Below are positions 4,988 to 53,850 of a stretch of 64,000 nucleotides of DNA, in pieces. Each line of letters starts with the position of its first letter. The first letter of the stretch is position 1. Source of the DNA: Mytilus edulis (lineage: Eukaryota); the NCBI RefSeq assembly GCF_963676685.1, contig NC_092353.1, forward strand, positions 20,243,307-20,307,306. Direction: 5' to 3'. Under the pieces are notes generated by a model, which was not told the DNA's origin, made no database searches, and saw nothing but the letters and a program-made list of their open reading frames with translations. Made by a program: the position numbers and the translations under genes.

Positions 4988-5269
4988 AGCAGCCTGGACA
5001 GATTCTATCCCTATATTCTCTCCTCTGAAAATTTAATCATCAGATGAGAAAAGGCATATAAACAAGCTTTTATTTGTAACTTTATAGACACTGACTGTTC
5101 AAGAGCTGAAAATATTGTAAAGAAACACATCTATTGACATAACTGTCAAAGACTTAAAATAAGTTTTGTATCACCCAATCTATGGCACTATTTCATATAT
5201 TATGGGTCAAGTGCATTGCATACATTGGCCTTCTTAGTATTTTGAAAGAAGCAGCATATAAAGGGGATC

Positions 5270-10717: not shown

Positions 10718-13060
10718 AAACTAGAGGCTCTAAAGAGCCTGTGTCGCTCACCTTGGTCTATGTGCATATTAAACAAAGGACACAAATGGATTCATGACAA
10801 AATTGTATTTTGGTGATGGTGATGTGTTTGAAGTTCTTACTTTACTGAACATTCTTGCTTCTTACAATTATATCTATAATGAACTTTGCCCATTAGTAAC
10901 AGAGAAAAATATTTGGTAAAAATTTACATAAATTTACCAAATTAATGAAAATTGTTAAAAATTGACTATAAAGGGCAATAACTCCTTAAGGGGTCAATTG
11001 ACCATTTAGGTCATGTGGACTTATTTGTAGATCTTACTTTGATGAACATTATCGCTGTTTACAGTTTATTGCTATCTATAATAGTATTCAAGATAATAAC
11101 CAAAAACAGCAAAATTTCTTTAAAAATTACCAATTGGAGGGCAGCAACCCAACAACCGGATGTCCAATTCATTTGAATATTTCAGGGCAGATATATATTG
11201 ACTTGATTAACAATTTAACTCCTTGTCAGACTTCCTCTAAATGATTTGGGTTTCAGAGTTATAAGCAAAAAACTACATTTTACCCCTGTTCTATTTTTAG
11301 CCGTGGTGGCCATCTTGGTTGGATGGCCAGGTCATCGGACACATTTTTCAAACAAGGTACCTCAAAGATGATTGTGGCCAAGTTTGAATTAATTTGGCCC
11401 AGTAGTTTCAGAGGAGAAGATTTTTGTAAAAGATAACTAAGATTTACGAAAAATGGTTAAAAATTGACTATAAAGGGCAATAACTCCTAAAGGGGTCAAC
11501 TGACCATTTCGGTCATGTTGACTTATTTGTAAATCTTACTTTGATGAACATTATTGCTGTTTACAGTTTATCTCTATCTATAATAATATTCAAGATAATA
11601 ACCAAAAACAGCAAAATTTCCTCAAAATTACCAATTCAGGGGCAGCAACCCAACAACAGGTTGACCGATTCATCTGAAAATTTCAGGGCAGATAGATCTT
11701 GACCTGATAAACATTTTTACTTCATATCAGATTTCCTCTAAATGTTTTGGTTTTTGAGTTATCAGCCAAAAACTGCATTTTACCCCTATGTTCTATTTTT
11801 AGCCGTGGCGGCCATCTTGGTTGATTGATCGGGTCACGCCACACATTTTTTAAACTAGATACCCCAAAGATGATTGTGGCCAACTTTGGATTAATTTGGC
11901 CCATTAGTTTCAGAGGAGAAGATTTTTGTAAAAGATTACTTAGATTTACGAAAAATGGTTAAAAATTGACTATAAAGGGCAATAACTCCTAAAGGGGTCA
12001 ACTGACCATTTCCGTCATGTAGACTTATTTGTTAATCTTACTTTGCTTAACATTATTGCTGTTTACAGTTTATCTCTATCTATAATAATGTTCAAGATAA
12101 TAACCAAGAACGGCAAAATTTCCTTAAAATTACCAATTCAGGGGCAGCAACCCAACATCAGGTTGTCCGATTCATCTGAAAATTTCAGGGCAGATAGATC
12201 TTGACCCTATAAACAATTTTACCCCCATGTCAGATTTGCTCTAAATGCTTTAGTTTTTGAGTTATAAGCCAAAAACTGCATTTTACCCCTATGTTCTATT
12301 TTTAGCCGTGGTGGCCATCTTGGTTAGTTGGCCGGGTCACCGGACACATTTTTTAAACTAGATACCCCAATGATGATTGTGGCCAAGTTTGGTTTAATTT
12401 GGCCCAGAAGTTTCAGAGGAGAAGATTTTTCTAAAAGATAACTAAGATTTACGAAAAATGGTTAAAAATTGACTATAAAGGGCAATAACTCCTAAAGGGG
12501 TCAACTGACCATTTGGGTCAGGTTGACTTATTTGTAAATCTTACTTTGCTGAACATTATTGCTGTTTACAGTTTATCTCTATCTATAATAATATTCAAGA
12601 TAATAACCAAAAACAGGAAAATTTCCTTAAAATTACCAATTCAGGGGCAGCAACCCAACAACGGGTTGTCTGATTCATCTGAAAATTTCAGGGCAGATAG
12701 ATCTTGACCTAATGAACAATTTTATCCCGTGTCAGATTTGCTCTAAATGCTTTGGTTTTTGAGTTATAAGCCAAAAACTGCATTTTACCCCTATGTTCTA
12801 TTTTTAGCCATGGCGGCCATCTTGGTTGGTTGACCGGGTCACCAGACACATTTTTTAAACTAGATACCCCAATGATGATTGTGGCTAAGTTTGGTTAAAT
12901 TTGGCCCAGTAGTTTCAGAGGAGAAGATTTTTGTAAAAGTTAACGACGCCAGACGACGACGGACGACAGACGACGGACGACAGACGACGGACGCCGGACG
13001 CCGGACGCCAAGTGCTGGGAAAAGCTCACTTGGCCCTTTGGGCCAGGTGAGCTAAAAAGA
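10718..13060. repeat. Satellite-carrying non-autonomous element (family C). ~5 tandem ~480-bp units starting ACTAGAGGCTCTAAAGAGCCTGTGTCGCTCACCTTGGTC and ending in a (GACGRC)n microsatellite plus perfect hairpin AGCTCACTTGGCCC-TTT-GGGCCAGGTGAGCT-AAAAA.
   Basis: Direct sequence comparison of units. The same 5' head and 3' hairpin terminus recur at 16366-17220, 27146-28444 and 51178-53850. Confidence 0.8.
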
Positions 13061-13299: not shown

Positions 13300-13880
13300 G
13301 AAGAACACTTTACAGGTGAATGATGCCTCAATGATCTATGCCCATGCAATAAGCAATGCCTCAACAAAGACTTCAACTTCCTGATGCCTCAATGATCTAT
13401 GCCCATGCAATAAGCAATGCCTCAACAAAGACATCACCTTCCAGATGCCTTGAGGATCTACGCCCATGCAACAAGTAATGCCTCAACAAAGACATCACCT
13501 TCCAGATGCCTTCAGGATCTATGCCCATGTAATAAGTAATGCCTCAACAAAGACATCACCTTCCAGATGCCTTGATGATCTATGCCCATGCAATAAGCAA
13601 CAAACACATCACCTTCCAAATGCCTTGAGAATCTATGCCAATGCAACAAGCAATTCCTCAACAAAGACATCACCTTCCAGATGCCTTGAGGATCTATGCC
13701 CATGCAACAAGCAATGCCTCAACAAACACATCACCTTCCTGATGCCTCATTGATCTATGCCCATGCAACAAGCAATGCCACAACAAACACATCACCTTCC
13801 GGATGCCTCAAGGATCTATGCCCATGCAACAAGCAATGCCTCAACAAAGACATCACCTTCCAGATGCAAGATGATGCCTT
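13300..13880. repeat. ~60-bp minisatellite (TGCCTCAATGATCTATGCCCATGCAATAAGCAATGCCTCAACAAAGACATCACCTTCCAGA)n, ~10 copies, in intron of the SNAP-25-like gene
   Basis: Direct inspection. ORFs 13466..13753 and 13696..13920 are artefacts. Confidence 0.85.
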
Positions 13881-16365: not shown

Positions 16366-17220
16366 CTAAAGAACATGTGTAGCTAACCTTGGTCTATGTG
16401 AATATTAAACAAAGGACACAGATGGATTAATGACAAAATTGTGTTTTGATGATGGTGATGCGTTTGTAGATCTTCCTTTACTAAACTTTCTTGCTGCTTA
16501 CAATTATCTCTATCTATAATGAACTTAGCCCAGTAGTTTCAATGAAAACATGTCTGTGAAAATTTACAAATTTTATGAAAATCGTTAAAAATTGACTATA
16601 AAGGGCAATAACTCCTTAGGGGGTCAATTGACCATTTTGGTCAAGTTGACTTATTTTTAGGTCTTACTTTGCTGAACATTATTGCTGTTGTCAGTTTATC
16701 TCTATCTATAATAATAACAAAAAATGGCAAAATTTCCTTATGATGATTGTGGCCAAGTTTGGTTTAATTTGGCCCAGTAGTTTCAGAGGAGAAGATTTTT
16801 TTAAAAGAATACGAAGATTTACGAAAAATGGTTTAAAATTGACTATCAAGGGCAATAACTCCTAAAGGGGTCAACTGACCATTTTGGTCATGTTCACTTA
16901 TTTGTAAATCTTACTTTGCTGAACATTATTGCTGTTTACAATTTATCTTTATCTATAATAATATTCAAGATAATAAACAGAAACAGCAAAATTTCCTTAA
17001 TATTACCAATTTAGTGGCAGCAACCCAACAACAGATTCTCCGATTCATCTGAAAATTTCAGGGCAGATAGATTGATTGTGGTCAAGCTTGGTTAAATTTG
17101 ACCCAGTAGTTTCAGAGGAGAAGATTTTTGTAAAAGTTAACAGACGACGCAGGATGACGACGACGGACGCAAAGTGATGAGAAAAGCTCACTTGGCCCTT
17201 TGGGCCAGGTGAGCTAAAAA
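16366..17220. repeat. Family C satellite-carrying element, copy 2 (~1.7 units, same (GACGRC)n plus hairpin terminus). Lies in intron of the SNAP-25-like gene.
   Basis: Same termini as 10718-13060. Confidence 0.8.
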
Positions 17221-17294
17221 TTAAATGTCCAATCGAATCATACAAATACATACTGATCCATGCCTCTTTTTTTGTGCTTTTCAATATTTTTTAC

Positions 17295-17996: not shown

Positions 17997-18119
17997 TTAA
18001 AATGAAATATTTTTACCAAATTCAGCCAATGACATATCCGATCCTAATGGTCTTATTTCTAAGGTTTCGCCTAGTTCTTCTTGTTCTAATTCTTCTAATT
18101 CTGCTAACAGATCATCATC
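17997..18119 (-). CDS. CHMP4: CHMP4/Snf7 terminal coding exon (DDDLLAELEELEQEELGETLEIRPLGSDMSLAEFGKNISF*). Stop at 17997-17999 unless an internal donor GAATTTG|gtaaaaat is used.
   Basis: Matches CHMP4B DEDELMAELEELEQEELDKNLLEI. Acceptor gattttacag|GATGATGAT. Confidence 0.65.
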   Translation of the reverse strand, partial: DDDLLAELEELEQEELGETLEIRPLGSDMSLAEFGKNISF

Positions 18120-18431
18120 CTGTAAAATCAATTTCAAATTGAGTACAAAATACAGTTGGTTCCATAACTTGAAAGCCAAAAATCAATCAATTGATTGTTC
18201 ATTGTTTAACATTCAGTGTCAAATATTTCATACATGTTCATAATGACAAAATCCATCAATCAGCCCATTGTAAAATTCTTGAGATACCCATGCATACACG
18301 CTTTTGGACGGATGAGCTGCTATTACTTTTATCACAAATTGCCAAAAAATCCACTAAAGGCGAAGCTGGTAATCTTATGTAATTCATGTACATATCATGT
18401 CCACTGGCACTGGTATTCAGCATACTATGTC

Positions 18432-19253
18432 CACAGTGTGGGAACGGAACTGTACGGTGTTTTAATATTTTTGTCATTCGGGAGACTGTCAAGCGGTGCT
18501 CCGACATTCGAAAAACAACAAGTTGATGAATGTAAGATTTGATTAACACAAACGTTACAATATTAAGTTTCTGTTTAAAGATTTGGTAACGAAAACATTC
18601 TACACATATATATAGACCAATCAAATGCTGTAAGCAACATATACAGCCAGACGTTTTCTATTAAACGGTTGAGCTCCAAGTAAATCGCTCAAAATTCTTG
18701 TTTCTCATGAATACTGTAGTCAAAATCATTACTCTGCTCCCAAGCGACACTACAGAACTGCTCCAAGTGATAATACAGTCGAAAGTTGTTTACCGACAAG
18801 CGACCGTACAGTGAAAAATATTTAGTGACTTCTGTTTTCAAAGATTTAGAACTATTTTCTAGTGTAAACATGGTGAAGTTGAATATGATGAAAAAATATA
18901 TAATAATTCTTATTACACAACTTAAAATTTTGTTAAAAAAACCTTTTAAAGTCAGATTTTCAGCTGAATGAAGGCAATCACTTGCATAATTTGGGTCGGA
19001 GCTCTTACTTTTATTCCATTTTTTTCCATGTTTTCTTGCCTCTAGAATATTTTTTGACCCCTGGAATGTTTGAATATTATTGACAGATGCAATACTTTTC
19101 TCATATGCATTAAAAGTGAGCCCAGAGATAGTAATTATATAAAACAATTACTTCTTCGTAGCTGAAAATGCTCTCGAATGTCGGAGCCCCGCTTGACAGT
19201 CTCCGGAATGACCAAAACATTAAAACACCGTACAGTTCCGTTCCCACACTGTG
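18432..19253. mobile_element. Non-autonomous Transib-like DNA transposon (822 bp), ~95-bp TIRs beginning CACAGTG, flanked by 5-bp TSD ATGTC (18427-18431 and 19254-19258)
   Basis: Left end …catactATGTC|CACAGTGTGGGAACGGAACTGTACGGTGTTTTAAT… Right end …ATTAAAACACCGTACAGTTCCGTTCCCACACTGTG|ATGTCcc. The arms are reverse complements over ~95 bp. A 5-bp TSD with CACNGTG termini is the Transib/RAG-like hallmark. No transposase ORF. Confidence 0.7.
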
Positions 19254-20003
19254 ATGTCCCTTCTGTCAAAATTTGGGTTTTAACAAAGTTGGTTATGTGA
19301 TAGAACTACAGATTTTAAAATTATTCTTATTATCAATTTATTAATTCATTTAACAGATCTTATATGAAGTATTAAGTATAACAATTATATCAACTGGACT
19401 GTTTTTTTTAGAGAATAATTGTACCCCTTAATAAATTAATTTGTACATAATATATTTATTCATTAAATTTGAAGAATTGTCTGAGCCGTGTATATGACTT
19501 CCGTTATCAACTGCTTCTGGTATATATCATGTGCTTCTGGCTAGTATGACATGCCTTTCTTAAATGTTATTGCAAAGCATTTCGACATCATTCTGCAAAT
19601 TTTAGAAAATTAACCTCAGTGGTACATTTTAATGAAAAACATACTAGAAATGCTATGTTATAATCTATATATCGTTATCTTACATTACCTTTCCAATAAC
19701 AACACATGCAATTCCTAAATAAATACTAAGCTATTGTTGGAACATGAACTAGATTATTATTCAAATGTTTGAGAAATGTGAATAAGCCCTCAGACCTGAA
19801 TCAAGAGGGTTCCAAAAAAACTTGATTGTAGGTAATTCTTTGATTTTTGTTGTTGCTGTCTAACTGAAGTATATCGCACATCCCCTTTATTTTCTAACAG
19901 CTATCAGATCACCCTTGTGTTTCTGCAATCCATATACCATTGAGTGTAAGTTTCTTTAATGTCCAGTGGCAAATATATCAAGAGTGTGCATGACAATACT
20001 AAC

Positions 20004-20088
20004 CTCATCTGCTGTCAATCCAAAATAATTAGTAGAAATAGCATCACATATTTCATCAGACACTAGATTATGAACATGGTCAATATCC
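20004..20088 (-). CDS. CHMP4: CHMP4/Snf7 exon (RDIDHVHNLVSDEICDAISTNYFGLTADE)
   Basis: Matches CHMP4B DIDKVDELMQDIADQQELAEEISTAIS. Acceptor ttccccag|GGATATTG. Donor GATGAG|gttagt. Phase 2 to 0. Confidence 0.7.
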
Positions 20089-22274
20089 CTGGGGAAAAAA
20101 CATAAAAAGTACATTTATGTTATATAAAGAAAGAAAAAAGAATAGTCGGCTTTACATCAAAAATGATTTTTCCTCTCAGAGTCTGAAAGGAAAACTTTTC
20201 AACTTTGATCATACAAAGAGGCGAAAACTAGCTTCAAGTACTCTTTGAACTGTACTTTGTGTCTTTAGTCTTTTGGTTAGTTGTTAATTGTTTTATATGT
20301 GTCAATCTAATGAGTGTTGTCCTTTTCAATTGATTATAATAGTTTGTTTTTATGTTGTGCTGCTACACCGCTGTCCTACATATTTGTTTTTCCTTAATTG
20401 TTATAGCTTACTAAATAGTATGGGTTTTGCTCATTGTTGAAGTATGATGAAGAAAATGAAATTGGATTTTTAAGTAAAGAATTCATAAATATGAGATATT
20501 AAACATTTAAGGGAATACGATACAGTAGCAGGGGCAGATAATAACGTTGTCGAAACTTGTCATGTTGTTTCCGCGACGTTGTTAATCAGAACGTTGTGAT
20601 TTCGCGATGTTTCTAATAAGAACGATTACATTTTGCGACGTCGCTTTAGATGTATTCACATTTGCGGAAAATTCATTGACGTCATAAACCCGGTTGGGCG
20701 GATTTGAAAAAAGTACCTGCTAAAAAAATTGTCCATATCACAAGAATTGTTATATTTATTCATTATTAATTAAAGTTAAGAAGTTAAGAAGTAAACAGTA
20801 TTAACTTGAAATGAGAAAAAAAAATCAAATCCACATACAAAATTTTATATGTGTTTTATTTCATATAGGAAATGAATAAAAGATATGTAAATAATAATAC
20901 GTCGCTGAGACAGAAACCCAACTACACAAAAAGCCCAATAAGTAATTTAGGTATCAACGTACTATCTTGATAAATATTTAGTATCTACACTATTTGGCAA
21001 ACTATAAATCGTACGGAGAATTTCACTGATAATTTTAACAGACTATCAACAAAATGACAAAATAACATAATAAATAAAGAAAACGACTCCTACTGATTCT
21101 GACTTTGAATAGGTAAATTCTTGAAAACGTTAAACGGCAATTTAGAATTTAACCAAGTGTATGTGTATGAAGAAGAACTGTCAGTTAAAAAGAAACAGTC
21201 ATAAGCACGGTACGTATTATAGAACAAAGCATCCGTTGATGTGCTAAGTATATCCTTATGTACATATTGAGAGAAAAAAATGGCACTCAGGAATTAGGTA
21301 TCTGACTAACCAGGAAAGTGTTCACACGTTGCAGCTCATGATGTTAAGCTGCTGACCAAAGACAACAAATATGAAGTTACTCTGTGAGGTAGTATCTTAG
21401 ATAAGAAAAAAATATTTCTTGGACCACGGAACGGACGGACAAACAATGTGGTTGCACCTACTCCTAGATTGGAGGTCTTATTCAGAAAAGTAAGGGAACG
21501 GCCATTTAACGTCAAAGTTAGAAAGGGAGAGGGGTAATGTTTTTCCCCATAAAGAAATGTTGTGGTCAAGCAGGTGACAAAATTAATTAAAATTCTGAAT
21601 CCAGATGTTTCCTGTTCCTTAGGCTATATTGTCCAATTTGTTCAATTTTGAAAAAAAATTGATTGATGGAGTCGAAAAACGAAAACTTAAAAAAAAATGT
21701 CCTAATAAATGGTTGCTCTCTACGTCATTAATTATATGTACCATAATAAAAGAGAATACCCCGAAAACAAGCTTAGGTAACTTATCTAATGATACAGAAT
21801 CATGCAATTTCATGCTCTAATACCGACGGCTGTACTTCCAATAAAATGTTAAACTACACCGTAATGGACTATGTTGAATAATTACGACATAAATTTGTTC
21901 AAGACCGCTCTAAATATTCACTTTTTATATATGTTCAGAGTAGTGCCTAAGTTGACCTGATTTAATGTGGATATGGTTTTGTTTTCATATAATGCCTATA
22001 GAGTAGGCCGTTAGTTTTTCTTATTTGAATCGTTTCACATTTTCATATCGGGGATTTTTAAAGCTGAATAATTACATTAGATGTATGTTTCATTATAATA
22101 CTTTATTCTCATTGGCTAACTGCACATCACGTGTTATTCCGTAAGCAGTTGCATTGCTCAATACAACTTTTCATTCATGATAACACGTGGTCTAACAATA
22201 AAGTGCACAGGTGAATTAAATTAAAAAAAATATGTAAAATACGTGTTTTCATGATCAAAGCTAAAAAATGTAAT

Positions 22275-22435
22275 TATAAGTATTGAATGCTTCTTTTTGT
22301 AACTTTATAGGGTTGTAAAAGCGTTGACCGTGCGCACATTTTTAGAATGAAGCGCTTCCGCGCTTCATACAAAATGTACTTCGGTCAACGCTTTTACACT
22401 CCAATAAATTTACAAAAAGAAGCATTCAATTCTTA
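22275..22435. repeat. Nested perfect palindrome / foldback. Outer IR GAATGCTTCTTTTTGTAA…TTACAAAAAGAAGCATTC; inner IR GTAAAAGCGTTGACCG…CGGTCAACGCTTTTAC; central GAAGCGCTTCCGCGCTTC. Lies in CHMP4 intron. MITE-like.
   Basis: Reverse-complement symmetry read directly. Confidence 0.6.
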
Positions 22436-24413
22436 ACTAATCGGTGTGGCTTTTGTTTTTGTTTTGTTGCAGGCCGTATAGGTTGCACTTTGTAAATCAC
22501 GTGTGATTTGCAAGTCACGCCTCTTTTGGGGAGAAATTGAATGTGCATAAAATACTGCTACTGTTTACATAGTTGTTGCCACGGATGCAAAGTAATTTTT
22601 TTTTAATTAAGACTTGATTGGAGAATTAAATGGATATAAATAAAAATGTCTATTTATTTAACTTATTTTTCAGGAGGACTGGAAGACATTTGGGTGTTGA
22701 GTCAAATTTAATGGAAAAATTCAGTGCGAACCTGCAATGTTTATAAATGGAGGGCAGTAAAACTTGAAAATATGCCGCACAGCTATATGTTTTTATTAGT
22801 GCAAAAAAAAGTAGTGCATGTCTCCTTTCCAGGGAAATATAACATTCTCCTCAAAACTTCCTGAATGAAGAGTGACTGCATATGCAATTTAGGCAGTTCC
22901 TATGGAAAACTGCATTGCTGGTTTTACACAAGTGCAACCTATAGTGACCTTTACTTCATTTATCTTCATCATTTGTCCTGATTATAATGTTTTCACATTG
23001 TGTCATGTCGGGGCCTTTTGAATTATTAAAACTGTTATACTCAGCTGTGTTGTCTACATGAATTGTAGGACTTATGCACATTTTTTTTTTATCAGATTTA
23101 ACTTTTTTGTTTTCAAACGTCTCTTTTCTAAAAGTAATTTACTAGAATACTTTTTGTCTAGCCTTCGATTTTAGTCGACAAAGCGAGACATAGCGATCCT
23201 ACATGCCATCGTCCACAAATATTCACTCTGTTGTTAAAAGTTTTTGAAATTTTAATAACTTTTTAAACTAACCTGGAATTGTACCAAAGCTTGTGTATGA
23301 TCAATGGATAGTATCTAGAAGGAAATTTTGTTACATTTTGTACCTGTTTTCTGTATTTTACTAATAATTTGACTTAGTTTTTCTTCCAGTTAACATTACA
23401 TACAGTCTGCAATTAAAGATTTAAAAAAAAATATTAGATTCATAAACTATTCTGGAATTTTACCAAACTTGGAAAAAGCTTCTTACAATCTAAAGATATA
23501 GTATCGAAAGAAATATTTTTATTTTAATTTTTTTCTGCTTTTTTGTTGAGTCTGCTATTAATAGCAAAAGTAGGCGAGACACTGGGTTCCGCGGAGCCCT
23601 TACGAATTTTTCTATCCAAGTATCATAACAATTCATAAAGGTTTGGCAAATATTTTATACTATATTACGGATAACCACTATATTACGGATAACCAGCTTT
23701 ATAAATTTTGATGATTAATATCATTGCTTTCGAAAAAAAATCTTGGCTATACCACTGAACTTGACAGCGTAGTTGTGACCGGCGGGAAAGTTATCATGAC
23801 GTTGTTGCGATTAAAACTTATTTTAACGTAGTTTAGCGCCTTATTGGCAAACGTCCCGTTTGCCATTAAAAATCAATGTTTATTGCTTTTATTGAAAAAA
23901 CAAGCACATGGACCCCCAGTTTTTTCTTTTGCAATCAATTAAGTAATGTTAAAAGAACGCTTCGCCAAAATTTAAAGGAAAAATCAACGATCAAATTTTT
24001 TCTGCACCTCTGAATAGAATCACAAATGTTGTCAATTTCTTTATTTCACTAATACATGTAGTAATATAAATTCAGAAAATAACAATTTAGTTTAACCTTA
24101 AATTTGTTATACATTATGTTGATGCCATAGATCTAGGGATCATTTCACAAAAAACCTGGTTAAGTTATGACTGTTCGTTCAAAAGTATTGTTACTTTCCG
24201 TAAAAGTCCTTATTTATGGAATTTCTGGGTTTTTACCTCAAAGATGCAAATTTCAAACCAAATTATCTGAAAAAGTAAGTCATGAAGGTATATTTTTCTT
24301 TGCATATTTCGAAAGTACACATTAAAATTGACCTTGTACCAAACTTTCAAGAAAAAATCAACGAGGAATCTCTACTGTATCGTATGCCCTTAATGCATTT
24401 ATTGGATTTTTAC

Positions 24414-24591
24414 CTGTGCTGCTCTGTCATGTTTAAGGCTTTATTAGCCCCTCCCATACAAATCAAAACTTCTTTGTTAGTAGTTGCATGCTCCAATGCC
24501 TCTCGCTGAAATTCCATAGTTGATAGTGTTCCATCTACTTGCTGTAACTGTCGTTCATACTTCTTTTTCCTCTTTAAAGCTTGCAGAGCAA
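24414..24591 (-). CDS. CHMP4: CHMP4/Snf7 exon (VALQALKRKKKYERQLQQVDGTLSTMEFQREALEHATTNKEVL…)
   Basis: Near-identical to CHMP4B AALQALKRKKRYEKQLAQIDGTLSTIEFQREALENANTNTEVL. Acceptor cttatcaatag|TTGCTC. Donor CACAG|gtaaaaatcc. Phases consistent (1 to 2). Confidence 0.85.
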
Positions 24592-25240
24592 CTATTGATA
24601 AGCACAAACTCACTATAAATTTCCATATTAATGCACACAAAGATGAAGATTTAAATGGAATATTTATTCAATCATATTGCCATTAAATATAATAAACTCA
24701 CCATACCAGGATTAAAATTGTGTACACTGATCATGTGCTTGGTCTACAAAAGACTCATGAGTGACACTTGAATCAAAACAGGCTCCAAGGAGCAATCAAT
24801 GATCATCAAAAAACTATATGCAGACAGTTTTTATCTAGTGATTTCTAGGGGCTTGCATTAAAATAGCCATTATTTTAATTGAAGGTTTCTGTTTTGTAGT
24901 CCTATTGGATCTTTAAAGTAAAAGCAGTGCACACTTTTTACTGCAGTGCTACATACAAAATTTCTTTGGTCAATGTTTTCAAATACAGATGAAACTTCAA
25001 AAAGCAGCATATCTACCAATTACGTTTATATCTAACAATTTAAATATTCAACATACCGGTATTAGGCAAAACAGTAAATCTAAATGCTTATCAGTACTAA
25101 ATGGTAGATTGATTTAATTTATCAATGGAAGGTAAAATTAAATATTGCTTTTTATAAACATTGGTTGTAGCTGAATTAACTACAATTGTTTAAAAAAAAA
25201 GAAGATAACTCCAATTTTAAAGATTACTTGCAACAATTAC

Positions 25241-25429
25241 CTCTTTTGTTTGTGGCAGCATTTTCTTTTGCCACCTTCAGTTCCTTGTCCATCTTCTTTT
25301 CAAGGTAATCTAGTTTTTTCCCTAACATGTCTTCTTTTTTCTTTAAGTTTTCCACAGTTTCTTGTGCTGCAGGAGTTTTAAAACCACCTTTGTTCTTTGA
25401 TTGGCTTGATTTGGATCTTGTGTCTTGTT
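25241..25429 (-). CDS. CHMP4: CHMP4/Snf7 (ESCRT-III) exon (…KGGFKTPAAQETVENLKKKEDMLGKKLDYLEKKMDKELKVAKENAATNKR). No in-frame ATG, so an upstream exon is required.
   Basis: Matches CHMP4B PTPQEAIQRLRDTEEMLSKKQEFLEKKIEQELTAAKKHGTKNKR. Acceptor aatttcag|AACAAG at 25430, phase 1. Donor AAAAGAG|gtaattg. Confidence 0.75.
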
Positions 25430-25598
25430 CTGAAATTAACAGTAGATCATTTTCTATTCATATAAATGTTTGAAATTTATCTGCATATCAATGATTATTA
25501 ATGAAACCAAACAATCTGAATTTAGCAATTTTTTTTCATCTATAAGTATACTATACTATTAATCCGTTTATATTTGAAAGATAAATATACAGGACACT

Positions 25599-25906
25599 TT
25601 AATTACCTGAAGGCTGAACTGGTTCACTTTTTTCCTCGTCCATCATCCTCTTTACAAAGGCAAAATAATTAATCTGTTGGTCAGTACTGTCCACATCAGC
25701 TTCTCTCATCATTTCTTCAATCTCCTCGTCTGTTAATTTCTCCCCTAAGTTTGTCATCACGTGTCTTAAATCTGACATGCTGATAGATCCTTCACCATCT
25801 TTGTCAAATACTTTGAATGCTTCCATTATTTCTTCTTCTGCATCAGTATCTTTCATCTTATGTTGCATCAATGTGTAAAATCCTGGAAAGTCAACTGTAC
25901 CTCTAT
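25599..25906 (-). CDS. Calmodulin-like EF-hand protein exon, EF hands 3-4, with stop codon (…[102 protein letters not shown])
   Basis: Matches calmodulin [70 protein letters not shown]. Acceptor attttag|ATAGAGG. TAA stop at 25599-25601. A GT donor overlaps the stop codon: TCAG|gtaattaa. Confidence 0.75.
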
Positions 25907-26269
25907 CTAAAATATAAATTTAAAATCTAAGTCTTTGGTAGATGAAACGAGCGTCTGGCGTCAGTGTAAAATTTTAGTCCTGGTATCTATGATAAGTTTA
26001 TTTATATATTTTTTATATTGTCAATTCAGAAATTATTGCCAGGTTTTTATTAATGCACAAAATGCCACTGGGTGAGCATCCCAATGATAAGAACTCACAT
26101 TCGGACAACTGAAATATAGACCTGTATGCCCTTTTTTCCATAATCACAATAAAAGAACTCGCACTTTTGTTCATTCTGGAAAAATTGCAATAATAAATGC
26201 ACGCAATAATATCTTAATTTACAGTATATAAATTTATCTAAGTATCTTTTAACAATGACACTGAAAATA

Positions 26270-26480
26270 ATACATGATAATAACACTGAAAACAATACAT
26301 TACACTGAAAATAATACATGATAATAACACTGAAAACAATACATTACACTGAAAACAATAAATTACACTGAAAACAATACATGATAATTACACTGAAAAC
26401 AATACATTACACTGAAAACAATACATGATAATTACACTGAAAATTAAACAATACATTACACTGAAAACAATACATTACAC
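26270..26480. repeat. Short tandem repeat (CACTGAAAACAATACATTA / …ACATGATAAT…)n
   Basis: Direct inspection. Confidence 0.7.
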
Positions 26481-26668
26481 TGAAAACGATACATGAAAAT
26501 TTTGGAGCATAAAACAAGTTTTTATTTCAGTTGAGTACAGTTTATACCACAGCACAGATAAAAATTTAAATCTTAAAATTTGCTTGCTTTTAGACATTAT
26601 TTATATATTTCTATCTATATCTTATAGATTATTTTTCATTGAAACAAATTATGCTTGGAATAGGTTAC

Positions 26669-26812
26669 CATCAAAGTCAAGATCATTTATTATGATTTGT
26701 AGTTCTGCTTCTGTTGGATTTTGACCCAAAGCCCTCATGAGAGACCCAACATCTTTTGTAGAAATTGTATGCCCATCATCTTCAGAAAATATATCGAAAG
26801 CTTCTTTCAGTT
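26669..26812 (-). CDS. Calmodulin-like EF-hand protein exon, EF hands 1-2 ([48 protein letters not shown]…)
   Basis: Matches calmodulin [49 protein letters not shown]. Acceptor attttcag|AACTG, phase 1, so an upstream Met-containing exon is required. Donor TTTGATG|gtaacc. Confidence 0.7.
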
Positions 26813-26974
26813 CTGAAAATATACATATTAATAAATATCAAAATCAAAAATGTCTATATTTTTGTCAAATCAGAACCAAAAGAGGATCATTAGAAGAGGA
26901 CCTCCATTCATCATATCTTGACAAGTTTGATTAAAATCTGCCAGACCAAAAGAAGAAGATGATAATGTTGAATA

Positions 26975-29258
26975 AAATGCTCTGCAGGGCGCAGCTAGAT
27001 ACGACCGCAGAGGTTGAACTCTGAACAGTTGGAGCAAGTATGGACACAATATTCAAGCTGGATACAGCTCTGAATTTGGATTGTGATTAAATATTTGACA
27101 CAGCATAGGTTTCTGACACAGAATGAATGTGGTTTAATGAACTTAAACTAGAGGCTCTAAAGAGCCTGTGTCGCTCACCTTGGTCTATGTGAATATTAAA
27201 CAATGTACACAGATGGATTCATGACAAAATTGTGTTTTGGTGATGGTGATGTGTTTGTAGAGCCTACTTTACTAAACATTCTTGCTGCTTACAATTATCT
27301 CTATCTATAACAGTACTTTCTGTGGAAAATGTTATTGAAAATCTTCAAATTTTAAGAAAATTGTTAAAAATTGACTATGAAGGGCAATAACTCCTTAGGG
27401 GGTCAATTGACTATTTTGGTCATACTGACTTATTTTTAGTTCCTACTTTGCTGTACATTATTGCTGTTTACAGTTTATCTCTATCTATAATAATATTCAA
27501 GATAATAACCAAAAACAGCAAAATTTCCTTAAAATTACCATTTCAGGGGCAGTAACCCAACAACCGATTATCCGATTCATCAGAAAATTCCAGGGCAGAT
27601 AGATCGTGACCTGATCAACAATTTTCCTTCCTGTCAGATTTGCTCTAAATGCTTTGGCTTTTGAGTTATAAGCCAAAAACTTCATTTTACCCCTATGTTC
27701 TATTTTTAGCCATGACAGCCATCTTGGTTGGTTGGGCGGGTCACCGGACACATTTTTTAAATTGGATACCCCAATGATGATTATGGCTAAGTTTGGTTAA
27801 ATTTGGCCCAGTAGTTTCAGAGGAGAAGATTTTTCTAAAAGATTACTAAGATTTACGAAAAATGGTTAAAAATTTACTATACAGGGCAATAACTCCTAAA
27901 GTAGTCAACTGACCATTTTGGTCATGTTGACTTATTTGTAGATCTTACTTTGCTGAACATTATTGCTGTTTACAGTTTATCTCTATCTATAATAATATTC
28001 AAGATAATAACCAAAAACAGCAAAATTTCCTTAAAATTACCATTTCAGGGGCAGCAACCCAACAACGAAATGTCCGATTCATCCGAAAATTTCAGGGCAG
28101 ATAGATCTTGACCTGATGAACAATAATACCCCTGTCAGATTTGCTCTAAATGCTTTGGTTTTTGAGTTATAAGCCAAAAACTGCATTTTACCCCTATGTT
28201 CTATTTTTAGCCATGGCGGCCATTTTGGTTGGTTTGCCGGGTCACTGGACACATTTTTTAAACTAGATACCCCAATGATGATTGTGGCCAAGTTTGGTTA
28301 AATTTGGCCCAGTAGTTTCAGAGGAGAAGATTTTTGTAAAAGTTAACGCAGGACGACGACGGACGACGAACGACGACGACGGACGCCGGACGCCAAGGGA
28401 TGAGAAAAGCTCACTTGGCCTTTCTGCCAGGTGAGCTAAAAAATTTAATTTACTTATGATGTTCCAAGATCCAAAATCTACATGGCCATGGATTGATTCA
28501 GCATATCAAAGAATCACAAGAATTCATTTTTTTATGAAATCAAACAATGTTTAATTTTGGACCCTTTTGACCTCAATGGCGAAATCTAAGGATTTTCTTA
28601 TGCCAAGCATAGATTACCTTAGCCAATTTTGGCACAACTTTTTGGAATTTTGAATCCTCAATCCTCTTCAACTATGTATTTGTTTGGCTTTATATCTTTT
28701 TTAATATGAGCGTCATTGATGAGTCTTATGCAAACAAAAGGTGTGTCTGGTGTACTTAATTATAATCCTGGTACCTTTAATTTGATAACTATTGACCTAA
28801 ATGTGGACCAATTTGATAACAGGGCCCAAAAATCAGAAAATCAAAATACATGGTTAGATTTAGCATATCAAAAAACCTGTTACATTCAATTTTTGTTGAA
28901 ATCAAACAAAGTTAAATTTTGGACCCCAATTTTGACCAACTTGAAAACTAGGCCCATAATCAAAAATCTAAATACATGTCTAGATTAAATAGCATATCAA
29001 AGAACCCCAAGAATTCAATTTTTGTGAAAATCAAACTAAGTTTAATTTTGGACCCTTTGGACCTTAATGTAGACCAATTTCAATCCCAACCTCCCTTTTG
29101 TGGTTTCAAACCTTCTTTTTAAATTTCATAGAGATTCATTTTCTTAAACTAAAGTTATTGTCTGGAAACTTAGTGTCTTTGGATGATGCTGACGACTACA
29201 ACATGATACCAATATATGACCGCAAAATATTTTTGCAGTCGTATAAAAACCTAGGACC
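26975..29258. mobile_element. Family A composite element enclosing a family C satellite module (27146-28444) and ~100-bp repeat module; tail TTTTTGCAGTCGTATAAAAACC
   Basis: Head at 26975-27140 is ~90% identical to 620-790. Tail at 29225-29258 has the same hairpin motif. Confidence 0.6.
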
Positions 29259-29479
29259 ACGACGACAAACACTCAAGCAATGAAGATCATTCATAAGGGA
29301 TTTTGAGCCAGAAGAGAATTTTTTTGGTTATTATCATAAGCCTCAAAACATACCTCTGCCTTCATTACATTAACTAACCATATTTTTTCATAATGATCTT
29401 CAGTTCTTTGGTATTTTTAAAACTTGACTTTTTTTTGTCTTAATCTTAATCTCTTATAGAACAAATGCCTCTATTTTAC

Positions 29480-29602
29480 CTGAAGTAATAAGATCTTCCC
29501 CATCCACTGCTCCTCTTTGAACTCCTTTTACAAATCGTCCACTACTGAGACTTTCATCCTCACTAGTGCATTCTTCCTCACTGCTACTACTATAGACACT
29601 TC
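29480..29602 (-). CDS. PARP4: PARP4 candidate exon 26 (GSVYSSSSEEECTSEDESLSSGRFVKGVQRGAVDGEDLITS). Last PARP4 exon identified; 3' end of gene not found.
   Basis: Phase-1 acceptor tatttaag|GAAGTG compatible with exon 25. Donor TTCAG|gtaaaatag. Acidic/Ser-rich like the PARP4 region after SWQGE. No direct homology. Confidence 0.45.
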
Positions 29603-29934
29603 CTTAAATAATAAATTCATAGAGGCTCATAAACTTTCCTTTGAGCACCTTTAATGCATGAAATTATAAAATTGAGGTTGTGAGTTTTGAAATCCTGCTC
29701 GTATTGGTACACTTGACTCCAATCTTGACTAGGATTGTTTTTTTTTCCGAACGAAGGTTAGTGGTTTTCACTGGGCACACCATTAAAAACTGGCCGCTAT
29801 AAAGTGGAGTTAAACACCAACAATGAATCAATCAACTACATACAATAAGAACCAATCTTACCAAGTATGAGAAATTTTATAAAATGGTCTCATAGTAGTT
29901 GCATTCACAGGGTGTTATTGTCATAAGCTTCAAC

Positions 29935-35218: not shown

Positions 35219-35299
35219 CTGATGGTCAATACTGTCAGGGGAGAGTACTCCATCTTCCCAGTCTCTGATCACAGCTTTAGCAGTCAGGCAGTGAAGAAC
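35219..35299 (-). CDS. PARP4: PARP4 exon 23 (VLHCLTAKAVIRDWEDGVLSPDSIDHQ)
   Basis: Matches PARP4 MIHKLAARALIRDYEDGILHENETSHE. Acceptor attgacag|GTTCTTCAC. Donor CATCAG|gtataatta. 81 nt. Confidence 0.8.
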
Positions 35300-47887: not shown

Positions 47888-48071
47888 CTTGAATTCTGAA
47901 GGTTGATCTTCTGATGAAGCTACACCATGACAGCTTTCATAACCCTCTGGAGGCCCCTGTAGGTCTTTTTGGTATTCAGTGAAATCTTTACAGTTGCCAA
48001 GGGCAACATTACTGACTAGCATCATTCTGGTACCCTTACATTTACTTTGGTCTGAGTACTGTATACTAGTA
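47888..48071 (-). CDS. PARP4: PARP4 exon 10, catalytic core (STSIQYSDQSKCKGTRMMLVSNVALGNCKDFTEYQKDLQGPPEGYESCHGVASSEDQPSEFK)
   Basis: Matches PARP4 LSTSIKYSHPGETDGTRLLLICDVALGKCMDLHEKDFSLTEAPPGYDSVHGVSQT. Acceptor tattacag|TACTAG. Donor TTCAAG|gtacatg. Confidence 0.85.
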
Positions 48072-48497
48072 CTGTAATATAAATATACCAGGTGTTGTTA
48101 ATTATGTATTTTGACATTACCCCTTGTTTGGCCCCAAATTATACAATTAGCACTTTGCACTTTGGAAAAATAAAAGTAAGTTGCATTTTAAACATTTATG
48201 TTTCCATCTCTAAGTAAATTGATTCAAGGATTTTCATAAATGTGAATAATGGGACTTGATCGCAATAATAAGAAATCCCATTTTCTGATATTGGATACTT
48301 ATGTATATCTTTATGAAGATTAAGTTGAAATCGCAATAACCAGTCTTACATTTTGGTTAGATCTTCAAAAATGACAATTATAAATGCATGCAATAATTTC
48401 TGAACTTCCAGTATTTATATTCACATGTATCTTACCTTCTGTGAATAGATGTTATGAAAATTGGATGAATGTTACAAACAGAATCACATTTACATAC

Positions 48498-48596
48498 CTA
48501 GCAGAACTGGCAAAGTAGATTCCATTTCCCAGCATTCCTGCATCTGTTCTGGTTCCACCAAAATCATCAACTACAACTTTAGGCAGCATTAAACCT
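48498..48596 (-). CDS. PARP4: PARP4 exon 9, PARP catalytic core (RGLMLPKVVVDDFGGTRTDAGMLGNGIYFASSA)
   Basis: Near-identical to PARP4 RGLLLPKVVEDRGVQRTDVGNLGSGIYFSDS. Acceptor ttgcag|AGGTTTAATG. Donor GCTAG|gtatgtaaat. Confidence 0.85.
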
Positions 48597-48999
48597 CTGC
48601 AACAAATATTTACATTTGAAGCGGATATATGTTGTAAAGCTCTTAGCATAATTTTAATATTATGTAATGAGCTGTTATAAATACTGTATAATAATGATAA
48701 TAAAAGTAAAAGTTTCTTTCTGTATTTCAAAGTACAGGTTTAATGAGAAATTGGTTTCTCCTTTTTATATTTGTTAACATTTTGTTATCTTATCTAACAT
48801 TATGTCTTTTTCTGTAACTACTGTGGAATAATTATCAATTGTGTGAAATATCAATTTTTATGGATTTCGTTGGTTTAGATAAACTACAATTTCAAATGTT
48901 CAATGAAAGTTAAATTCCTATTATGCAGACTTTACCAAAGCCACAAAATTAACAATTAGCAAAAATACAATTGGTCCTCAATCCATAAAAATTTGTTGA

Positions 49000-49690
49000 G
49001 TAATTGAGTATTGAGGTTGAGTAATATTGAGGTTGAGTAATTAAGTATTGAGGTTGAGTAATTGAGTATTGAGGTTGAGTAATTGAGTATTGAGGCTGAG
49101 TAATTGAGTATTGAGGCTGAGTAATTGAGTATTGAGGTTGAGTAATTGAGTATTGAGTTTGAGTAATATTGAGGTTGAGTAATTGAGTATTGAGGTTGAG
49201 TAATTAAGTATTGAGGCTGAGTAATTGAGTATTGAGGTTGAGTAATATTGAGGTTGAGTAATTGAGTATTGAGGTTGAGTAATTGAGTATTGAGGTTGAG
49301 TAATATTGAGGTTGAGTAATTGAGTATTGAGGTTGAGTAATTGAGTATTGAGGCTGAGTAATTGAGTATTGAAGTGGAGTAATTGAGTATTGAAGTGGAG
49401 TAATTGAGTATTGAAGTTGAGTAATTGAGTATTGAGGTTGAGTAATTGAGTATTGAGGTTGAGTAATTGAGTATTGAGGTTGAGTAATTGAGTATTGAGG
49501 TTGAGTAATATTGAGGTTGAGTAATTGAGTATTGAGGCTGAGTAATTGAGTATTGAGGTTGAGTAATTGAGTATTGAGGTTGAGTAATTGAGTATTGAGG
49601 CTGAGTAATTGAGTATTGAGGTTGAGTAATTGAGTATTGAGGCTGAGTAATTGAGTATTGAGGCTGAGTAATTGAGTATTGAGGCATATT
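49000..49690. repeat. 21-bp minisatellite (GAGTAATTGAGTATTGAGGTT)n, ~33 copies with 16-bp variants, in PARP4 intron
   Basis: Direct inspection. The ORFs 48956..49687 and 49204..49710 are artefacts of this array. Confidence 0.9.
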
Positions 49691-50077
49691 ATGTTATGTG
49701 TTCTACTCATTATATATAATTAACACGAAAATATCATCTAAGTGGTGAATATTCATGAGCTGGTTTTTTTTTAAATTGTTGCCTTCATGCATATCAAAAA
49801 CTTCTTTTATGTACTGTTGTCTATGGAAAGTAGTCCGAATTTAGTGTAATCTACATTTTCACGAAGCTAGTACACATTTGTGATAAGAGTACAGCAAAAG
49901 TCCCCTTTAGTTGCAAGAATTTCTAAACTTGCGGTGTTGAAGACCCATTGGTGGCCTTGGGCTGTTTTCTGCTCTTTGTTTGGGTTGTTGTCTCTTTGAC
50001 TAATTCCCCATTTACATTCTCAATTTTATTACATGCCTTTAAGAAAAACGCAAATTGATATTCTATTCTATTCTTAC

Positions 50078-51177: not shown

Positions 51178-53850
51178 ACTAGAGGCTCTAAAGAGTCTGT
51201 GTCGCTCACCTTGGTCTATGTGAATATTAAACAAAGGAAGCAGATGGATTCATGACAAAATTGTGTTTTGGTGATTGTGATGTGTTTGTACATCTTACTT
51301 TACTGAACATTCTTGCTGCTTACAATTATCTCTATCTATAATCAACTTGGCCCAGTAGTTTCAGTGGAAAATGTTAGTTAAAATTTACAATTTTTATGAA
51401 AATTGTTAAAAATTGACTATAAAGGACAATAACTCCTTAGGGGTCAATTGACCATTTCCGTCATGTTGACTTATTTGTAAATCTTACTTTGCTTAACATT
51501 ATTGATGTTTACAGTTTATCTCTATCTATAATAATATTCAAGATAATAACCAAAAACAGCAAAATTTCCTTAAAATTACAAATTCAGGGGCAGCAACCCA
51601 ACAACGGGTGGTCAGATTCATCTGAAAATTTCAGGGCAGATGGATGTTGACCTGATAAACAATTTTACTTATGTCAGATTTGCTCTAAAGGCTGCGGTTT
51701 CAGAGTTATAAGCCAAAATCTACATTTCACTCCTATGTTCTATTTTTAGCCATGGTGGCCATCTTGGTTGGTTGGCCGGGTCACCGGACACCAATTTTTT
51801 AAACTAGATACCCCAATGATGATTGTGGCCAAGTTTGGTTTAATTTGGCCCAGTAGTTTCAGAGGAGAAGATTTTTGTAAAAGATAACTAAGATTTATGA
51901 AAAAATGGTTAAAAATTGACTATAAAGGGCAATAACTCCTAAAGGGATCAACAGACCTATTTGTAGATCTTACTTTGCTGAACATTTTTGCTGTTTACAG
52001 TTTATCTCTATCTATAATAATATTCAAGATAATAACCAAAAACAGCAAAATTTCCTTAAAATTACCAATTCAGGAGCAGCAACCTATCAATGGGTTGTCC
52101 AATTCATCTCAAAATTTCAGGGCAGATAGATCTTGACCTGATAAACAATTTTACCTCGATGTCAGATTTGCTCTAAATGCTTTGGTTTTTGAGTGATAAG
52201 CCAAAAACTGCATTTTACCCCTATGTTCTATTTCTAGCCATGGCGTCCATCTTGGTTGGTTGGCCGGGTCACAGGACACAATTTTTTAACTAGATACCCC
52301 AATGATGATTGGGCATAGGACATTTGAGCGAAAAAGAAAAAAGCACATAGGGTCATTTGAGCGCCGACTTCATAGGACATTTGAGCGCCGGGATATTAAC
52401 CTTACCTGAGTTTTCAGACAGGACATTTGAGCGAAATTTTCCCTGATAATTTTACACGAATTAAGATTTTTTTTTAAAAGTAAGAAAAAAAAGTAAGATT
52501 TAGTTATAAATATTTTTTATTTTATTTCACACCCGAGTAATTCGACCGGTTCTGGCTGGTTTATGTAAGTGAAATCCTAAGTTGATCTCTATTTACCAAT
52601 CAATTCTACTATAATTCATTGGCTATGCAAATTTTCTTTGTTCTAAAATTCTTATATATATATCTATTAAGTGAAATGTCCCTTGGCACTTGAAATCTTA
52701 ATACTAATAATACATGTACGTGTTAAAATGGATATTATTTTGACCGAGACTAATAAGGGAAAAAGAAGCCTTGTTTGTGACAGTTTCCGATATAGAGTGG
52801 ACAAAACACTAAAAGGAGAAGAAATATCCTGGAGATGTACAGTAAGTACCTTTTTTTACAAATTTAATGTTAATGTAAACTACTTGTTCGTCTGTTACGC
52901 TTCAACTTCCATAACTTCTTTTAATTTTGATTTATATCTATATCATTATATGTCTATCTTATACCTCCTTTAGATTAATTTTTTAACACATTTGAATATA
53001 AGCTACCACATATAGGGTTAGGTATCAAGGCTCCATGTTGAAGGTCGTACTGTAACCTATATAACATTGTTAGGTTGATTTTCTAGGCACTTTACAATAT
53101 TCATACAATACACTGTAAAAATTGTGCTTAAATGTCCTAAAATTTAGGCGCTCAAATGTCCTATACTTTGGCGCTCAAACGTCCTTTTTTTTTCGCTCAA
53201 ATGTCCTGTCAATGCGCTCAAATGTCCATTGCCGTGATGATTGTGGCCAAGTTTGGTTTAATTTGGCCCAGTAGTTTCAGAGGAGAAGATTTTTGTAAAA
53301 GATTACTAAGATTTACGAAAAATGGTTAAAAATTGACTATAAAGGGCAATAACTACTAAAGGGGTCAACAGACCATTTTGGTCCTGTTGACTTATTTGTA
53401 GATCTTACTTTACTGAACATTTTTGCTGTTACAGGTTATCTCTATCTATGATAATATTCAAGATAATAACCAAAAACAGCAAAATTTCCTTAAAATTACC
53501 AATTCAGGGGCAGCAACCTATCAACAGGTTGTCCGATTCATCTCAAAAATATAGGGCAGATAGATCTTGACCTGATTAACAATTTTACCCCATCTCAGAT
53601 TTACTCTAAATGCTTTGGTTTTTGAGTTATAAGCCAAAAACTGCATTTTACCCCTATGTTCTATTTTTAGCCATGGCGGCCATCTTGGTTGGTTGGCCGG
53701 GTCACCGGACACAATTTTTAAATTAGATACCCTAATAATGATTTTGGCCATGTTTAGTTAAATTTGGCCCAGCAGTTTCAGAGGAAAAGATTTTTGTAAA
53801 AGTTAACGACGACGGACGCCAAGTGATGAGAAAAGCTCACTTGGCCCTTC
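51178..53850. repeat. Family C satellite-carrying element, copy 4 (interrupted by MULE-like insertion 52313-53234). Terminal hairpin truncated.
   Basis: Same head (ACTAGAGGCTCTAAAGAGTCTGTGTCGCTCACC) and 3' GACGRC tract; hairpin partially degraded (gctcacttggcccttcgggcag). Confidence 0.75.
52313..53234. mobile_element. Mutator-like (MULE-type) non-autonomous TIR element. 9-bp TSD TGATGATTG, ~19-bp TIRs (GGCATAGGACATTTGAGCG / CGCTCAAATGTCCATTGCC), subterminal direct repeats of CATAGGACATTTGAGCGCCG. Carries a FLYWCH-type zinc-finger exon fragment (52740-52849, …ILTETNKGKRSLVCDSFRYRVDKTLKGEEISWRCT|gtaagt).
   Basis: Inserted into one unit of the 480-bp satellite. The target site tgatgattg appears intact on both flanks. 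Internal ORF shows the FLYWCH pattern (F/L..T.KGK..LV.DG/S.F.Y…K…..ISWRC) followed by a canonical gtaagt donor. Confidence 0.65.

Follow-up and report, generated by a model that had tools for sequence, protein, structure and literature searches.

PARP4 and the exons downstream of it

We analyzed a 64-kb window of Mytilus edulis DNA (64,000 nucleotides of contig NC_092353.1) in which a PARP4 gene is followed, on the same strand, by exons related to calmodulin, CHMP4, SNAP25 and HSP70. The window is AT-rich eukaryotic DNA (GC 31-33%) dense in short repeats, and all exons relevant here lie on its minus strand. Exons were joined by script, their phases, AG/GT borders and open reading frames (ORFs) were read from the spliced sequence, and gaps and mismatches were counted from pairwise alignments. 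We compared three loci, namely the window, M. trossulus L001 and M. edulis L003; unique blocks of the two orthologous loci are ~88-96% identical to the window. When the upstream ORFs were concatenated and compared with Pfam, they matched PARP (112 bits), VIT (126 bits) and VWA_3 (42 bits), together with a weak match to BRCT_2 (22.6 bits, below the 27.3-bit cut-off). Since PARP, VIT and vWA domains with a weak BRCT occur here in the PARP4 order of BRCT, PARP catalytic, VIT and vWA, we identified the upstream gene as PARP4, its core exons lying between 36658 and approximately 59400.

Three distal PARP4 exons follow the core. The exon at 35299-35219 (phase 0 to 0) has AG/GT borders and encodes a peptide that is identical at all three loci. 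The exon at 34503-34402 contains an internal phase-1 donor (CTGA|GTAAGA, after 34464), which an M. edulis gene model uses as its route to an S/E-rich exon described below. The exon at 33610-33514 (DEVVSSEGPF..NWEGET), delimited by splicing and species comparison, has a phase-1 donor at its end; this last common PARP4 exon is absent from the M. edulis assembly (L003 ~26150-27850). An 82-bp unit made up of its acceptor and 5′ half (window 33643-33561) is single-copy in the window and tandemly repeated ~35 times in M. trossulus (L001:3076-5946). PARP4 may also end at an alternative terminal mini-exon, 31911-31880, which reads g|AG TAC CAG GAT GTC CAA CTA CAG ATA AGT TAA, encodes (E)YQDVQLQIS and stops at 31882-31880. 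This 33-nucleotide (nt) exon is the end of the coding sequence in a 1213-aa M. trossulus PARP4 model (L001:6389). Because the mini-exon is fully conserved (33 of 33 nt identical at all three loci) while its flanks diverge (~85% identical), a short PARP4 of ~1213 aa that ends before the S/E-rich exon is likely to be real.

The S/E-rich linker exon (SVYSSSSEEECTSEDESLSSGRFVKGVQRGAVDGEDLITS) lies at 29602-29480, phase 1 to 1, with borders AG|..CAG|gtaaaa. It has no ATG, a TAA stands immediately upstream of its acceptor, and its splice sites and ORF are kept at all three loci. In the M. edulis model CAG2205447.1 it is joined both to PARP4 and to the first of the EF-hand exons. An initial annotation of this DNA took it for the last PARP4 exon; its coordinates and phase-1 donor hold, but we recognized no PARP4 homology in it, and its assignment to PARP4 is by phase and position only. 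Reading through its donor gives the tail GKIEAFVL* (29456-29479, minus strand), which differs among the three loci by silent changes only (GTT/GTG, TAA/TAG), and the S/E-rich exon might thus also be usable as a terminal exon. Scanning 33513-26813 for first exons that run from an ATG to a phase-1 donor gave five candidates. Only the one at 31661-31619 (ATG, MCYYCYCHYILKYK, donor A|GTAAGG) is conserved, with peptide and donor also present in M. trossulus. It lies ~220 nt downstream of the mini-exon stop and could start an independent transcript of the S/E-rich and EF-hand exons; with ~0.5 conserved candidates expected by chance in the conserved blocks, it is weak evidence for such a start, and we treat this first exon as speculative. 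Another candidate, near 29890, was rejected since its phase differs between species.

Two EF-hand exons follow. EF exon A (26812-26669, phase 1 to 1) has no initiator Met. Its homologue in the canonical Mytilus calmodulin gene (L004) is an exon of 144 nt that spans exactly the corresponding codons, likewise with phase-1 borders, and follows further exons. EF exon A begins at the equivalent of calmodulin Glu11/Phe12, and we found no initiator exon of its own. EF exon B (25906-25607) encodes the C-terminal half of EF2, EF3, EF4 and an 11-codon extension, and ends TCAG|gtaattaa with a read-through TAA at 25601-25599; this donor is conserved at all three loci. The two exons are 60-70% identical to calmodulin, and their EF-hand pairs match the Pfam profile EF-hand_7 with 81 bits, as well as EF-hand_8, EF-hand_6 and EF-hand_1. 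The module is a calmodulin copy without exons 1-2 in which the parental stop has been replaced by a conserved donor. Conservation between species upstream of EF exon A is confined to the block carrying the S/E-rich exon. Between that block and EF exon A the window and M. trossulus share only 39 nt, and their comparison revealed no conserved first exon there. An ATTAAA overlaps the EF stop, which is trivial in AT-rich DNA, and a scan for polyadenylation signals after the three possible stops found no consistent AATAAA. The intron between the EF exons contains a 19/44-bp tandem array (26254-26500).

A canonical Ca-binding loop has 12 residues, with ligands at positions 1, 3, 5 and 12 and Gly at 6. 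In the spliced sequence, three of the four EF loops lack canonical ligands: EF1 deviates at S1, G5, H6 and D12, EF2 at R5 and G12, and the EF4 loop has an extra residue and lacks an acidic one at position 12. EF3 is the sole near-canonical loop.

The CHMP4-like module begins after an intron of only 177 nt, in which we found no exon running from an ATG to a donor. Snf7 exon 1 (25429-25241, phase 1) uses a new acceptor inside canonical CHMP4 exon 1. Exon 2 (24591-24414) has intron positions and phases as in canonical CHMP4, and exon 3 (20088-20004) was delimited by splicing, the canonical gene structure and comparison of the three loci. Exon 4 (18119-18017) ends at a phase-1 donor, TTTG|gtaaaa, with a read-through stop at 17999-17997; it is 6 nt longer in M. 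trossulus and 9 nt shorter in M. edulis. The spliced exons encode the Snf7 core (helices 1-4; Pfam Snf7, 90 bits, profile positions 2-158 of 171) and are ~55% identical to Mytilus CHMP4, whose canonical M. trossulus gene (L002) is located elsewhere. Introns 1-3 of the copy interrupt the same codons in the same phases as in that gene, and intron 4 has the same phase. Nucleotide homology starts at ~codon 17 of exon 1. In place of the hydrophobic N-terminal motif for membrane insertion (MSGLISKMFGGG in Mytilus CHMP4), the copy has (E)QDTRSKSSQSKN after the new acceptor; the C-terminal ALIX-binding helix (DDDELKELEAWAS in Mytilus CHMP4) is missing, and canonical exon 5 has no counterpart. Because the CHMP4 copy shares its introns with the canonical gene and EF exon A corresponds to the 144-nt calmodulin exon, gene structure identifies both modules as partial duplicates made at the DNA level, not retrocopies. 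Their phase-1 borders, which the initial annotation had noted, are in part inherited.

Snf7 exon 4 either reads through to ...GKNISF* or splices to SNAP25-like exons. The first of these, linker exon X (17320-17254), is used in the M. trossulus protein XP_063404519.1 and is 6 nt longer in M. trossulus and M. edulis. The second, at 14371-14263, ends at a phase-0 donor (AAG|gttagt) and carries a Qc SNARE motif: it matches C-terminal SNARE chains of SNAP25 in PDB (E = 3e-13 to 1e-11, query residues 17-79). No Qb-like exon was found in the chain, and in place of a Qb SNARE and Cys-rich palmitoylated linker, the Snf7 copy stands directly upstream of the linker exon. A homologue of the last SNAP25 exon (SLASDSRLQAANKKAMSIL..., 13187-13098) has lost the parental stop, its ORF continuing to a strong GTAAGT donor (AGT|gtaagt) that is kept in M. 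trossulus and M. edulis; in M. trossulus this exon is shorter by an in-frame deletion of 9 nt. The intron between the two SNARE exons contains a 61-bp tandem array of nine copies (13322-13867), whose orthologues are much longer (M. trossulus L001:19693-21358, M. edulis L003:37673-40461).

Further downstream, a tentative bridging exon (EEENDMFPPMNMTRSSKLKAFDTTTERR, 9750-9666, phase 0 to 1) is no more conserved than its flanks and is the weakest link of the chain. Since scanning 9665-5020 for a further bridging exon yielded nothing convincing, the link to the next exon relies on the second AG of cagAG at 5022. That exon is rich in E, R and K and extends from 5022 to 4393, with acceptor cagAG| at 5022 (or cag| at 5024) and a phase-1 donor. 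In both the window and M. trossulus it is 630 nt long, with 7.8% mismatches, no gaps and no stops, and its last ~150 nt are nearly identical; it has no match in Pfam. Tandem, in-frame exons for the HSP70 substrate-binding domain carry the chain on to the window edge (H1 3634-3233, H2 2754-2221 and H3 596-441). Their Pfam HSP70 match scores 350 bits in two stretches and covers only profile positions 379-551 of 599; these comprise the substrate-binding domain plus the beginning of the lid, repeated in tandem, without the nucleotide-binding domain. In the orthologous M. trossulus and M. edulis models the HSP70 exons are followed by PARP4_MVP-ID, the PARP4 domain that interacts with major vault protein (MVP).

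A continuous reading frame and the public gene models

When the last five PARP4 exons were spliced to the S/E-rich, EF and CHMP4-like exons, we obtained an uninterrupted ORF of 555 aa. An ORF of 432 codons runs from the S/E-rich exon to the SNARE exon, and 18 minus-strand exons with AG/GT borders form a single ORF of 1158 codons from the PARP4 exon at 35299 to the window edge. Searched against Pfam, the latter contains EF-hand, Snf7 and two HSP70 stretches. Splicing confirmed the exon coordinates, the phases and the overlap of the EF stop with a donor that the initial annotation had reported. As it had also proposed, EF exon A begins in phase 1 without a Met and fits the upstream donor, leaving the joined ORF uninterrupted, and the CHMP4-like exon 25429-25241 begins in phase 1 without an initiator ATG, the first in-frame ATG lying 33 codons in. 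Two of its statements had to be revised: the chain need not end at the CHMP4 TAA at 17997, as the conserved donor at 18017 leads into the SNAP25-like exons, and PARP4, said to have no terminal exon, has one at 31911-31880, upstream of the S/E-rich exon. A PARP4 terminal exon elsewhere was one of the findings that the initial annotation had set against any fusion; with this exon present, a short, unfused PARP4 is also likely.

Public gene models divide the locus in different ways. In M. trossulus, RefSeq recognizes three genes: PARP4 (1213 aa), an EF::Snf7::SNARE gene (376 aa), and a gene of HSP70 plus PARP4_MVP-ID (1316 aa). The second of these, XP_063404519.1 (annotated as 'CHMP4c-like'), starts at a Met inside EF-hand 1, uses the EF-to-Snf7 splice, and then proceeds from the donor at 18017 into 17320-17254 and 14371-14263; it matches the EF-hand::Snf7 chimera that the initial annotation had offered as an alternative. 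Its other alternative, a PARP4 with a Ca-binding tail, is matched by a public model as far as the EF tail goes. The M. edulis model CAG2205447.1 (775 aa) contains PARP-VIT-VWA exons, the S/E-rich exon and both EF exons and ends at the read-through SGN*, but Ca binding is doubtful given the three non-canonical loops. The next M. edulis gene encodes 1579 aa with Snf7, HSP70 and PARP4_MVP-ID and starts at a Met inside Snf7 exon 1 (helix 1). Jointly, the public models bridge every junction between modules, although the exon path of the 1579-aa model is not visible. Downstream of PARP4, all models start at an internal Met, and the RefSeq ATG of the M. trossulus HSP70 model reads ATA in the window. 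According to precomputed matches, the same-strand chain of both M. trossulus and M. edulis has PF26156 (PARP4_MVP-ID) at its 3′ end, within models annotated as separate genes.

For the EF and Snf7 parts, word-indexed protein searches gave XP_063404519.1 as the sole near match, and they returned no Mytilus PARP4, but these negatives are weak and the search is unreliable for this locus: it missed CAG2205447.1, which is 97% identical to 188 query residues and was recovered by an exhaustive protein search, and it also missed all models above 1000 aa (1213, 1316 and 1579 aa). An exact scan of metagenome contigs for two spliced junctions found none, which is uninformative as mussel cDNA is not expected in that collection. 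Literature searches returned no account of the locus, nor of a mosaic invertebrate PARP4.

Conservation of the frame and its splice sites

To put the open frame in perspective, we compared exons and surrounding DNA between the window and M. trossulus. In the 4671 nt of alignable DNA outside exons, mismatches amount to 8.0% and gaps occur 69 times; 65 of these gap events are not multiples of three, and 44 fall outside low-complexity contexts. Over the 1758 nt of the S/E-rich exon, the EF exons, Snf7 exons 1-3, the SNARE exon and the E/R/K-rich exon, we counted no gaps, against 17-26 expected. Elsewhere in the chain, exon lengths change by +6, +6 and -9 nt, and with M. edulis included these other changes relative to the window amount to +6, +6, +6, -9 and -9 nt. 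In a simulation with 85 random neutral substitutions, the frame from the S/E-rich to the SNARE exon stayed free of stops, as it is in M. trossulus, with a probability of 0.017. All donors and acceptors of the chain are conserved at the three loci. Taken together, the open frame and the lack of frame-breaking gaps are more than chance.

The residues that the modules encode are less protected than the frame. Between the window and M. trossulus, the ratio of nonsynonymous to synonymous divergence (dN/dS) is 0.16 for the last three PARP4 exons, 0.76 for the S/E-rich exon, 0.51 for the EF exons and 0.70 for the Snf7 exons. A protected frame with loosely constrained residues fits linker-like segments whose downstream continuation matters.

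A putative mosaic tail of PARP4

We propose that the EF-hand and CHMP4-like exons belong, as internal in-frame modules, to a single mosaic ORF, probably the tail of a long PARP4, a reading to which we give about an even chance. In this frame, partial, intron-containing copies of four genes are lined up. Calmodulin is represented from its 144-nt exon on, CHMP4 from ~codon 17 in exon 1 up to and including exon 4, SNAP25 by its linker and Qc SNARE exons, and HSP70 by its substrate-binding domain, which is repeated. These copies lack the parental first exons, and conserved splice donors have taken the place of the calmodulin and SNAP25 stops. The frame would be entered from the PARP4 3′ exons via the S/E-rich exon and would end, beyond the window, in the PARP4 MVP-interaction domain, as in the M. 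trossulus and M. edulis loci. A single transcript would then carry the whole chain and start at the PARP4 promoter. PARP4 would accordingly have two outputs, a short form of ~1213 aa that uses the mini-exon 31911-31880 and a long form that skips it, and in the long form the disordered linker from vWA to the MVP-interaction domain would have accreted mostly helical modules by exon shuffling. Rather than working as a Ca sensor, an ESCRT-III subunit or a SNARE, the modules themselves may be spacers or cargo-like segments within the vault. With rather more reservation, we suggest the fuller version of this model, in which mussel PARP4 exceeds 2500 aa, its linker has captured parts of calmodulin, CHMP4, SNAP25 and repeated HSP70, and the 33-nt exon switches between a vault-anchored mosaic and a short PARP4 without the anchor.

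A number of observations weigh against a single mosaic PARP4. The links via 9750-9666 and the acceptor at 5022 were our own choice and are tentative. Our knowledge of the MVP-interaction domain, which is not in the window, comes from precomputed Pfam matches only. In M. trossulus, RefSeq closes PARP4 with the mini-exon and annotates three genes. Predictors will take whatever in-frame path is open, so that expression is not independently proven by the public models. The dN/dS values of the S/E-rich, EF and Snf7 exons (0.5-0.8) are not distinguishable from 1, so amino-acid constraint is weak, and the Snf7 exons diverge as fast as their own introns. Lastly, the M. edulis assembly has one additional nt in an A6 run of Snf7 exon 1, which leads to a stop, and its Snf7 exon 4 is internally frameshifted and scrambled with a net change of -9 nt. 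Either real decay or a homopolymer error in the assembly may lie behind this, which also explains why the annotation of M. edulis broke the chain at this point.

The strongest competing explanation follows the RefSeq partition. PARP4 would then be the 1213-aa protein only, followed by one or two independent mosaic genes (S/E-EF::Snf7::SNAP25-like, and E/R/K::HSP70-SBD::MVP-ID, SBD being the substrate-binding domain) with their own promoters and small, unannotated first exons. The invariant mini-exon that RefSeq uses speaks for this arrangement, as do the conserved ATG mini-exon with its phase-1 donor at 31661-31619 and the GKIEAFVL* tail, whose purely silent changes fit an S/E-rich exon that terminates PARP4. 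However, that ATG mini-exon is within chance expectation, and the S/E-rich exon itself begins at an acceptor, lacks an ATG and is immediately preceded by a stop. Nor are the annotated starts credible, being a Met in EF-hand 1, a Met in Snf7 helix 1 and an ATG that is ATA in the window, and the MVP-interaction domain is otherwise the C-terminus of PARP4. We therefore consider this partition somewhat unlikely, if a serious contender.

Improbable, in our view, is that the exons are decaying, untranslated relics of partial duplications, which predictors chained since the inherited phase-1 introns fit. Near-neutral dN/dS, Snf7 exons conserved no better than introns, the lost Ca ligands, the missing CHMP4 membrane anchor and ALIX helix and the M. 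edulis frameshift would all be natural for relics. So would the lack of a close relative derived from transcript assembly in protein searches, except that those searches missed real models and their negatives are weak. Relics would not be expected to keep frames open over 432 codons in two species (p ~0.02) and 1158 codons in the window, nor to show 1758 nt of exon without an indel where at least 17 are expected, other length changes in multiples of three, and conservation of all splice sites. The CHMP4 copy, at ~55% identity to its parent, is old and yet open. Least probable are three conventional, packed genes (PARP4, a calmodulin-like gene and CHMP4) with short, undiscovered first exons, the arrangement that the initial annotation favored. 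Each module does match its own family clearly, and an ATTAAA overlaps the EF stop. Yet no exon running from an ATG to a donor occurs in the 177-nt interval that separates the EF from the Snf7 exons and that RefSeq treats as an intron, and the stretch between the S/E block and EF exon A has just 39 nt in common with M. trossulus. The CHMP4 copy lacks both termini and continues into SNAP25-like exons while a canonical CHMP4 gene exists elsewhere, and evolutionary rates are far from the expectation for calmodulin or CHMP4. With first exons lacking, parental stops lost and none of the recovered M. trossulus or M. edulis models giving three such genes, we disfavor that arrangement and prefer the mosaic PARP4 tail.

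Under the mosaic model, the locus would share with vertebrate PARP4 its BRCT, PARP catalytic, VIT and vWA domains, a long non-conserved linker and a C-terminal MVP-interaction domain. In human PARP4 that domain comprises residues 1562-1724, and the folded domains are connected by long disordered stretches (PMC12280208). The mussel locus differs in that the linker region has exon copies of calmodulin, CHMP4, SNAP25 and HSP70, that a conserved terminal exon can end the protein early, ahead of these modules, and that public annotation divides it into two or three genes.

Chimeric genes formed by exon shuffling or partial duplication are already known, as in Drosophila jingwei and primate TRIM5-CypA, usually with one donor and often from a retrocopy. 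What the locus would add is a multi-donor, exon-shuffled mosaic within the PARP4 linker. As in those chimeras, partial copies of unrelated genes are spliced in frame, parental starts and stops are lost and evolution is fast after fusion, but the mussel chain has at least four donors, intron-containing and in series, with phase-1 borders at most module junctions. It also resembles read-through or conjoined gene models, in which same-strand neighbors are linked by splicing out the upstream terminal stop; there two complete genes are joined, whereas the mussel downstream units have no credible starts or first exons. Should it prove to be one protein, this would be an unusually clear case of multi-donor exon shuffling in a living lineage, with four housekeeping genes contributing, and a first hint of an invertebrate vault PARP with extra folded modules between the enzymatic head and the vault anchor.

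Engineered vault cargo offers a further parallel: proteins fused to the PARP4 MVP-interaction (INT) domain, which is sufficient for placement in the vault lumen, likewise carry arbitrary modules N-terminal to it. Those fusions are laboratory designs; a mussel protein of >2500 aa, if true, would be their natural counterpart. As MVP is abundant in M. edulis gill (PMC5302490), a proteomic check of a vault-targeted mosaic is feasible. For annotation, the consequence is that pipelines cut one open chain at differing, arbitrary points, and truncated 'CHMP4c-like', 'PARP2_3_4' and 'HSP70' entries spread in databases.

Repeats account for much of the remaining sequence. A short repeat family with many copies and the ORF fragment PNLATIIIGVSSLKNVSGDP.NQPRWPPWLKIEHRGKMQFLAYNSKTKAFRANL occurs at ~11283-12894, 16709-17290, 27500-28505 and 51749-53757; it fills species-specific parts of introns, including the 'repeat block' at 26975-29258. 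Plus-strand ORFs between 17000 and 32000 are repeat-derived only. Within a PARP4 intron, a long imperfect tandem repeat (48950-49720) translates as a repeated peptide and accounts for a strong GC skew of +0.33 in the bin 48001-50000.

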